DNA of 64,000 nt. Source: Escherichia coli (lineage in GTDB: Bacteria > Pseudomonadota > Gammaproteobacteria > Enterobacterales > Enterobacteriaceae). Location: NCBI RefSeq assembly GCF_003334305.1, contig NZ_QOWS01000018.1. The stretch is one strand, 5' to 3'. Below, in pieces: positions 22,305 through 37,577 of this stretch. The translations under genes and the position numbers were made by a program. Below the pieces are notes generated by a model, which saw only the letters and a program-made list of their open reading frames with translations, did not search any database and was not told where the DNA came from. Numbering within the stretch: position 1 is the first letter of the stretch; each line of letters starts with the position of its first letter.

Positions 22305-23410
22305 CGCGCCAACTTAAGTGCAGTCTTCGGTACACAGCTACAGCAAAGAATGGTGCCATCATCGCCCATTGCTGATTTTTTCAGCGGCGTGACTTCGCCT
22401 TCTAAAAGCTGAACACGGCAACTTCCACAAATGCCCGCGCGGCAAGAATAAGGGATACGAATTCCCTGATTTTCTAATTGCTCCAGCAACACCTGTTGGT
22501 TATTTCCACGAAATGCCTGTCCCTGCCAGTCAATATCTACATTTGCGTCCGGTTGTTGCGTGATGTTGGCGGTATCATCAGCGGCAGCTGCGCCGTAAAT
22601 TTTTGCCGGAGCCGTTGCCAGAATTTCCACCTCATCGCCAACGCGAATCACGCCGCTATTACGGGCAATTAAATTCTGACCAAAATCGACATCGCCGTTA
22701 TCCTGGGCAGTGCGGAAAGATTGCAATGTTTTTAATGGTTCGCCTGCCGGATGTTTTTGCCCTTTTTCTGGGCTGACGGTGGTGAAAATACAGCGGCTAC
22801 AAGGTTTAACCACATCAAACACCACATCACCAATGCGAATCACTTTCCAGCTATCTTCTTCCCAGGCTGACGCGCCGGAAACCACCAGATTGGGGCGGAA
22901 TTGCTCCATTTTTACACTGGCCGGACAACGTTGTTGGAGATCACGTAACGAGGCTTCGTTAGCAAGAAGGTAAGGATAGCCATCAGCAAATGACAGGGGT
23001 ACAGTGTTGTGGCGTTTCACGCGCCGGGTCATTTGTGGCCCCACCCAGCGTAATTGCACTTCGCGGGAGAAAAATCCACTTAGCCATTTGTTGATCGCGT
23101 CTGGCGCAATTCGCGCGGTAAAATGTGTGCCCCAAACTTCGGTTGGTGCGTCTTGTGTGGCGAAATCAGCAAAACGAACATATGCGCTACTGCCATCTGG
23201 TGCGGTGAGATGCAAGCCATCATGCACAGGTGAAGGAGTAAACCGTACCATCTGGGGAAACTGGCGAGCGGTAATAAACGTACCGTCAGGTTCCGTGATC
23301 ATAAAGATGCGATCGAAGGCCAGACCACTGACATCAGCCAGAGCATGTGTAAGACCAATGCCGCGCATCGATTTAACAGGATGAATAAAAAGCCGGGTTA
23401 ATGTCGCCAC
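22301..23410 (-). CDS. ycbX: MOSC-domain protein with C-terminal 2Fe-2S ferredoxin domain
   Basis: 369 aa; C-terminal cysteine cluster [11 protein letters not shown]...CCSC typical of plant-type ferredoxins; 4-bp convergent overlap with zapC. Confidence 0.92.
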
Positions 23411-36219: not shown

Positions 36220-36729
36220 TTAATGATACAAATTAGAGTGAATTTTTAGCCCGGAAAGTTGTCTCGTGGCGTGAGAGGATGCGCTTACCGGACGCATAAT
36301 AAACCCCATAGCGTTACCTTCATTTGCCGCATCAACAAGTTCAGCATGCTCTTCTTCAGTCAAATCATCTGCCAACCAACCGATCACCACACTGTAATTG
36401 CCCGTGCGTAAAGCGCGAACCATTGACTCCACAGTGTGGCAAGGGGAGAGCTGGCTAATCTGCATTACTTTCGTTAAGGGTAGCCCAGATGCCTGAACCC
36501 ATTCCCGACTCAGTTTTTGTTGCGGTGTTAACCAGAGTTGCCAGCGCGATTGCTGACCGAGTTGCTGTAACAATGGCAACAGTAGAAGTTGCGTCATCAT
36601 GGGCTGATCTTCGCGATAGACAACTTCACTGATAAGCCCGGCTGTAGTGTTTTCCGTAGAGACACGCGCAATTTTACTTGCTGCGGATGAGAACGACGAA
36701 GAACGATGTGCATAGCCTGAAGTGTACAT
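36220..36729 (-). CDS. sulA: SOS cell division inhibitor SulA
   Basis: Track ORF trimmed to [25 protein letters not shown] (169 aa). Confidence 0.95.
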
Positions 36730-36751
36730 AATCAATCCAGCCCCTGTGAGT

Positions 36752-36771
36752 TACTGTATGGATGTACAGTA
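36752..36771. promoter_or_regulatory. LexA box (SOS operator) of sulA
   Basis: tACTGTatggatgtACAGTa: CTGT-N8-ACAG palindrome 23 bp upstream of the sulA start. Confidence 0.85.
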
Positions 36772-36947
36772 CATCCAGTGACAACAAAGATCAACCCTAT
36801 TTTCGGAAAGAGCCTCGCAAATTTTGTCGTTGGTGACGGGAAAACATAAATTAATCTTGCCCCTTAAGAATAAGTTGCCTATTTTCGTAGTTAACGGATC
36901 CGTTAATGTGAATCATTCTTTTATGTTATTATTTTAAAAGGAATTTT

Positions 36948-37577
36948 ATGAAAAGCCTCTCCTATAAGCGGATCTATAAATCACAAGAATACCTGGCAAC
37001 GTTGGGCACAATTGAATACCGATCATTGTTTGGCAGTTACAGCCTGACCGTTGACGACACGGTGTTTGCGATGGTTTCTGATGGTGAGTTGTATCTTCGG
37101 GCTTGTGAGCAAAGTGCACAGTACTGTGTAAAACATCCGCCTGTCTGGCTGACATATAAAAAGTGTGGCCGATCCGTTACCCTCAATTACTATCGGGTTG
37201 ATGAAAGTCTATGGCGAAATCAACTGAAGCTGGTGCGTCTGTCGAAATATTCTCTCGATGCAGCGCTGAAAGAGAAAAGCACGCGCAATACCCGGGAAAG
37301 ACTGAAAGATTTGCCCAATATGTCTTTTCATCTGGAAGCGATTCTCGGGGAGGTGGGGATTAAGGATGTACGGGCGTTACGTATACTTGGGGCAAAAATG
37401 TGTTGGTTGCGACTGCGGCAGCAAAACAGTCTGGTGACAGAAAAGATTCTGTTTATGCTTGAAGGTGCCATTATCGGCATTCATGAAGCTGCGCTCCCGG
37501 TGGCACGCCGCCAGGAGCTTGCAGAATGGGCTGACTCTCTTACGCCGAAACAGGAGTTTCCTGCGGAACTTGAGTAA
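36948..37577 (+). CDS. sxy: Competence regulator Sxy/TfoX
   Basis: 209-aa ORF MKSLSYKRIYKSQEYLATLGTIEYRSLFGSYSL. Confidence 0.92.
   Translation: MKSLSYKRIYKSQEYLATLGTIEYRSLFGSYSLTVDDTVFAMVSDGELYLRACEQSAQYCVKHPPVWLTYKKCGRSVTLNYYRVDESLWRNQLKLVRLSKYSLDAALKEKSTRNTRERLKDLPNMSFHLEAILGEVGIKDVRALRILGAKMCWLRLRQQNSLVTEKILFMLEGAIIGIHEAALPVARRQELAEWADSLTPKQEFPAELE

Follow-up and report, generated by a model that had tools for sequence, protein, structure and literature searches.

The sulA operator is a reference LexA site that was used in defining the SOS box, and induction of the SOS response is routinely read out with reporters of sulA, the standard choice. In Escherichia coli K-12, the LexA (SOS) box TACTGTATGGATGTACAGTA serves as the operator of sulA (sfiA), while in Salmonella enterica a single SOS box approximately 21 bp from the sulA ATG goes together with strong induction by DNA damage (26.7-fold). 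The divergently transcribed neighbour, sxy, has its own described promoter, Psxy (Jaskolska & Gerdes 2015; Sondberg et al. 2019, PMC6728893), and reporters of Psxy with manipulated half-sites have revealed that both cAMP-CRP and Sxy are needed for its activation (PMC6728893). Moreover, the literature holds a precedent for a LexA box that is shared by two divergent genes, i.e., the uvrA-ssb spacer, in which a single box overlaps the promoter of uvrA and also one of the promoters of ssb.

Here we analysed a 64-kb window of DNA (the whole stretch under study) that contains sulA and sxy back to back. The original prediction for this window described a near-perfect LexA box 23 bp upstream of sulA in a 218-bp region shared with sxy, argued from the CTGT-N8-ACAG core of the box, pointed to a juxtaposition of SOS-controlled division arrest with a competence regulator, and proposed scans for LexA and CRP sites. 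Our data make it highly probable that the spacer holds the LexA operator of sulA and a second, independent sxy promoter placed back to back with it, each with its own regulator.

The sulA-sxy locus

The window represents E. coli chromosome with the gene order matP-ompA-sulA-sxy-yccS, and the RefSeq annotation names sulA as an SOS-induced cell division inhibitor and sxy as a CRP-S regulon transcriptional coactivator, alongside yccS and the upstream genes ompA and matP. The sulA CDS (36220-36729, minus strand; RefSeq and NCBIfam) encodes a protein of 169 aa that is induced in the SOS response and inhibits formation of the FtsZ ring. Its annotated ATG is the complement of 36727-36729 and the ORF list begins two codons earlier, at a TTG. 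Against the NCBIfam equivalog NF007892 / TIGR00623 the SulA protein scored 275.1 bits (cut-off 162) over residues 1-169, i.e., full-length. The sxy (tfoX) CDS (36948-37577, plus strand; RefSeq and Pfam) encodes a protein of 209 aa that co-activates CRP at CRP-S sites and carries the TfoX_N (PF04993, E 2.7e-25) and TfoX_C (PF04994, E 6.7e-27) domains. A Shine-Dalgarno sequence, AAGGA (36938-36942, plus strand), is located 5 nt ahead of the sxy ATG. The two genes are divergent and separated by a spacer of 218 bp (36730-36947), in agreement with the original prediction.

A 1.6-kb stretch surrounding the LexA box was found in all of the complete E. coli genomes (5426/5426), and in 3827 of the 5426 the 216-base interval that reaches from the LexA box up to the sxy start showed at least 99% identity. 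In one of these genomes (NZ_CP147044.1) the spacer was matched in two pieces covering 67% of the query, and four copies of the sulA-sxy region are located on plasmids; the split match may represent an insertion in the spacer, and the plasmid copies may be plasmid-borne chromosomal segments.

The 3' ends of sxy (plus strand) and yccS (minus strand) overlap by 38 bp (37540-37577), where the scan found no terminator-like site; the convergence of the sxy and yccS operons has been noted previously (PMC4161252). In the ompA-sulA spacer, a promoter-like TTGTCA-16-GAAAAT (36091-36118, plus strand) is directed antisense into sulA. An antisense transcript over sulA has been reported, as has stationary-phase readthrough from sulA into ompA (PMC4161252), and the promoter-like element may be the promoter of this antisense RNA.

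The LexA box and the promoter of sulA

Positions 36752-36771 read tactgtatggatgtacagta, and 22 nt separate this box from the sulA ATG; counted to the A of this start codon, the distance from the edge of the box is 23 nt, in keeping with the prediction. The CTGT-N8-ACAG core matches exactly at 36754-36769 and is the sole copy within the 64-kb window. Taken alone, this core is statistically weak and not significant: approximately 0.72 copies are expected per window by chance, and 52 of 100 shuffles had at least one. As an argument, the core of the original prediction is thus present but carries little by itself. The 20-mer as a whole differs from TACTG(TA)5CAGTA at three positions, all of them within the central AT tract, which was reached by none of 100 shuffles, and its outer arms TACTGT/ACAGTA are matched at 12 of 12 positions, the single such site in the window.

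For scoring we used a LexA matrix based on 26 E. coli LexA boxes from which sulA had been left out (leave-one-out). At least 14 of these boxes can be checked against a table in PMC3009722. With this matrix 36752-36771 scored 21.85 bits (median of the training sites, 19.7), far above the rest of the window, where the next-best position reached 11.2 bits, i.e., 10.7 bits lower; the top score among 30 shuffled windows was 19.0 bits. The matrix score by itself is strong, not overwhelming, and the rest is carried by position, conservation and literature. No second LexA box was detected in the spacer or near sxy, the best other score in 36730-36947 being -6.7 bits. The near-perfect box upstream of sulA was in this way recovered as predicted, and as the only one in the spacer.

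The heterology index (HI) of the box in the sulA orientation is 4.37 (training sites span 1.1-9.6), and the values published for the sulA operator are 4.65 (PMC2994835) and 5.4 (PMC11228462). The reverse complement of the box is letter for letter the sulA motif TACTGTACATCCATACAGTA of PMC3009722. Compared to the K-12 operator we find no difference: the 20 bases are the same, their place beside sulA is the same and the HI is close to the published 4.65. The S. enterica box is likewise single and similarly placed, whereas its central spacer bases differ, as they do among the orthologues aligned in the present study. The 20-mer at 36752-36771 is hence the real, textbook LexA operator of sulA, which has already been fully described.

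The sulA -10 (TACTGT, 36766-36771, minus strand), as read from the sequence, is inside the LexA box, and the -35 (TTGATC, 36789-36794, minus strand) is 17 bp from it; together these hexamers match the sigma-70 consensus at 7 of 12 positions. The -35, which contains a GATC Dam site, falls in the invariant block AAAGATCAAC, and the adjoining 17-bp promoter spacer varies in sequence, never in length. The start of sulA transcription is likely near 36759, within the LexA box. We take this assignment of the -10 and -35 to be consistent with that of Cole 1983.

Because the box overlaps the -10 and the predicted start, LexA would repress sulA by occlusion. Specifically, a LexA dimer on 36752-36771 would cover the -10 (36771-36766) and the putative start at about 36759, and RNA polymerase would be excluded from the promoter with the -35 TTGATC (36794-36789) as long as LexA is bound. 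Following DNA damage, RecA-ssDNA filaments would bring about self-cleavage of LexA, sulA would be transcribed, and SulA would then block FtsZ polymerisation until repair is complete. Published data show approximately 20-fold induction of sulA by AZT with a 15-fold lexA dependence (PMC11228462) and no induction of sulA in lexA3 cells, and sulA is in use as a standard SOS reporter (PMC2994835 among other sources).

The region is also bound, and footprinted, by the TetR-type regulator RcdA (YbjK) according to genomic SELEX (PMC3535384), and sulA mRNA was reported to be unaffected in an rcdA mutant. The exact RcdA box TTGTNNACA has no copy in the sulA-sxy region. TGTACA, the core of the palindromic RcdA box (PMC3535384), is present twice, 40 bp apart, at 36723-36728 (across the sulA start codon) and at 36763-36768 (inside the LexA box).

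The sxy promoter, its CRP-S site and its leader

The CRP scan identified a CRP-S (Sxy-dependent CRP) site of sxy at 36801-36822, whose core, TGCGAGGCTCTTTCCG, occupies 36804-36819 (minus strand). A canonical CRP site was not detected, as nothing in the spacer matched TGTGA-N6-TCACA with fewer than 3 mismatches. The core differs from the E. coli CRP-S motif TGCGA-N6-TTCCA at a single position, and matches at this level are not rare by motif alone, with nine in the window. Among candidates elsewhere in the window, an exact match to the motif at 22834 was set aside as looking like chance. The half-sites TGCGA (sxy-proximal) and TTCCG (distal) equal those published for Psxy (PMC6728893), and the conserved half is sxy-proximal in both; we find no difference in sequence from Psxy as published.

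A sigma-70 promoter of sxy is predicted at 36857-36885 (plus strand), with the -35 TTGCCC (36857-36862) and the -10 TATTTT (36880-36885) 17 bp apart and a match to the consensus at 8 of 12 positions. The hexamers sit in the conserved blocks ATCTTGCC and TAAGTTGCCTATTTTC, and PMC3946193 likewise lists TTGCCC-17-TATTTT as belonging to sxy, at a SELEX peak of the RNA polymerase holoenzyme; the same study flags H-NS in the spacer. A generic scan for sigma-70 promoters and terminators returned no matches in the spacer, to which we attach little weight since both the sulA and the sxy promoter (7/12 and 8/12, respectively) are below its threshold of 9/12.

Judged from the -10 TATTTT, transcription of sxy should start near 36892, and the centre of the CRP-S site (36811.5) would then be at approximately -80, a distance that is deduced here. 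In general, CRP-S promoters have a class-I-like distance to the site (PMC6728893). Both starts were inferred from sequence, and the exact geometry of the two promoters therefore is as well. With a CRP-S site in a predicted class-I-like position upstream of a weak promoter, sxy would be subject to positive autoregulation that depends on cAMP-CRP and Sxy. The CRP-S site and the promoter of sxy are, as the operator of sulA, already described.

At the predicted start of sxy (+1 to +15) there is a perfect 16-bp palindrome, TTAACGGATCCGTTAA (36891-36906), which contains GATC and has no other exact copy in the window. Nine of its 16 positions are invariant among 17 aligned sequences, and its core TAACGGATC is kept across Escherichia, Citrobacter, Intestinirhabdus, Enterobacter and Lelliottia. 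Considered as an RNA hairpin it showed no significant covariation. The palindrome is the one unexplained item of the spacer and could be the operator of some protein. GATC (Dam) sites occur at just two places in the spacer, each within an element that looks functional: 36789-36792, in the sulA -35 TTGATC, and 36897-36900, in the middle of the palindrome. Nearly all of the aligned sequences retain both.

By analogy with H. influenzae sxy we considered a structured sxy leader, which was rejected: the fold of the alignment is a 7-bp AU-rich stem of -1.8 kcal/mol with no compensatory changes. The leader together with the early coding sequence did not fold better than shuffles (z = +0.46), and the leader gave nothing above threshold in Rfam. 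Position 36930, 18 nt upstream of the sxy ATG, is a T in the window and a G in the other 16 aligned sequences, including four other Escherichia (ATTATTATTT vs ATTATGATTT), and the T destroys the only C-G pair of the weak leader stem. This T is a lineage polymorphism common to the strains that are 100% identical to the window.

Conservation and the relationship between the two promoters

A scan with the Sxy protein, using one genome per species, provided 20 informative loci from Escherichia, Citrobacter, Intestinirhabdus, Enterobacter and Lelliottia, and sulA is divergently upstream of sxy in all of them (20/20). Two records call for comment. The 276 bases (1.1x coverage) of locus L022, in an assembly labelled Alkalicoccobacillus porphyridii, encode Sxy residues 76-167 with 99% identity to E. 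coli and almost certainly entered that assembly as E. coli contamination. In a MAG labelled 'uncultured Raoultella sp.' (L019, 1269-1538) the spacer is 98.9% identical to that of Citrobacter braakii ATCC 51113, which suggests a mislabelled or mis-binned contig.

The spacer was aligned for 17 sequences, which represent no fewer than five genera of enterobacteria. Invariant positions amount to 17/20 in the LexA box, where the sulA -10 is invariant, 6/6 in the sulA -35 and 4/17 in the stretch between the sulA -35 and the box, which is constant in length. For the CRP-S half-sites, TCGCA is invariant (5/5) and CGGAA is so at 4/5 positions (kept in 15 of the 17 sequences, with CTGAA in two Citrobacter), and the numbers for sxy are 4/6 in the -35 and 5/6 in the -10. 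Starting at the sulA ATG, the alignment is almost free of indels as far as the sxy -10. Conserved hexamers joined by spacers that are variable in sequence and fixed in length is the pattern expected of two real promoters.

The position of the LexA box relative to sxy bears on whether its promoter shares the operator. The box is 85 bp from the sxy -35, its centre precedes the predicted start of sxy by approximately 130 bp, and the CRP-S site lies between. The promoter scans detected no plus-strand promoter-like site overlapping the box. As in the uvrA-ssb spacer, a single LexA box is located between divergent genes; unlike the uvrA-ssb box, which overlaps a promoter of each gene, that of sulA-sxy overlaps the sulA promoter only. 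Our literature search for a link between LexA and sxy or yccR returned nothing relevant, and sxy is unmentioned in the main texts of two SOS transcriptome studies (PMC11228462, PMC3009722), although the silence of main texts is weak evidence. Given the position of the box, the control of sxy by its own CRP-S site and Sxy, and the lack of literature on LexA and sxy, the juxtaposition of SOS and competence is therefore a true and conserved fact of gene order, and not demonstrated co-regulation. Of the original prediction on this point, the neighbourhood of division arrest and competence regulator stands, in 20/20 loci, but we found no evidence for the regulatory link that it implied.

It is unlikely, though not to the same degree as the readings that follow, that the back-to-back promoters are coupled mechanically, with some cross-talk and without a common regulator. 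CRP-Sxy at 36801-36822 would be centred at approximately -52 from the putative sulA start, in the alpha-CTD/UP region, and could modulate sulA from there; alternatively, strong firing of the derepressed sulA promoter could alter sxy via local supercoiling or crowding of polymerases. The CRP-S 22-mer begins 6 bp past the sulA -35, and this gap is invariant in the 17 sequences despite varying flanks, which together with the RNA polymerase SELEX peak and the H-NS flag for the spacer (PMC3946193) is consistent with such coupling. However, the taxa are closely related and the fixed spacing may just mirror a short divergence time, and -52.5 is a non-standard position for activation by CRP.

We regard it as very improbable that the LexA box is a bidirectional operator which also represses sxy, such that competence would be switched on with the SOS response. 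That the box is in a spacer common to divergent genes, an arrangement kept in 20/20 loci, the near-absence of indels in the spacer as far as the sxy -10 and the shared box of uvrA/ssb would all accord with this. Against it are the distances of the box to the sxy start and -35 with the CRP-S site between, the lack in our scans of a plus-strand promoter over the box and of a second LexA box near sxy, and, as weak evidence, the silence of the SOS transcriptome main texts and of the literature on LexA and sxy/yccR.

Finally, that the 20-mer is a chance palindrome without regulatory role can be dismissed, for although about 0.7 copies of the bare core would be expected in 64 kb and one shuffled window reached 19 bits, the full match arose in 0/100 shuffles, 17/20 positions do not vary between genera whereas the non-coding bases nearby do, the letters are those of the published operator, and the 20-mer overlaps the promoter of sulA, whose published LexA dependence in effect refutes the idea.

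Taken as it stands, the presence of a LexA operator for sulA next to a separate, CRP-S-controlled promoter for sxy adds nothing to what is known, since the sulA operator and the CRP-S site and promoter of sxy were known already. The locus would gain importance only if a function could be shown for the conserved arrangement of its genes. We consider it unlikely that the rigidly conserved layout (LexA box, sulA -35, 6 bp, CRP-S site, sxy promoter, TTAACGGATCCGTTAA) is more than gene order, and that it either couples SOS division arrest to competence, through promoter interference or supercoiling, or includes in the palindrome the operator of a repressor that silences sxy in laboratory E. coli. 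If DNA damage, division arrest and the uptake of DNA were directly linked in enterobacteria, this would be relevant to the question of why E. coli has retained competence genes that stay silent under laboratory conditions as a regulon.
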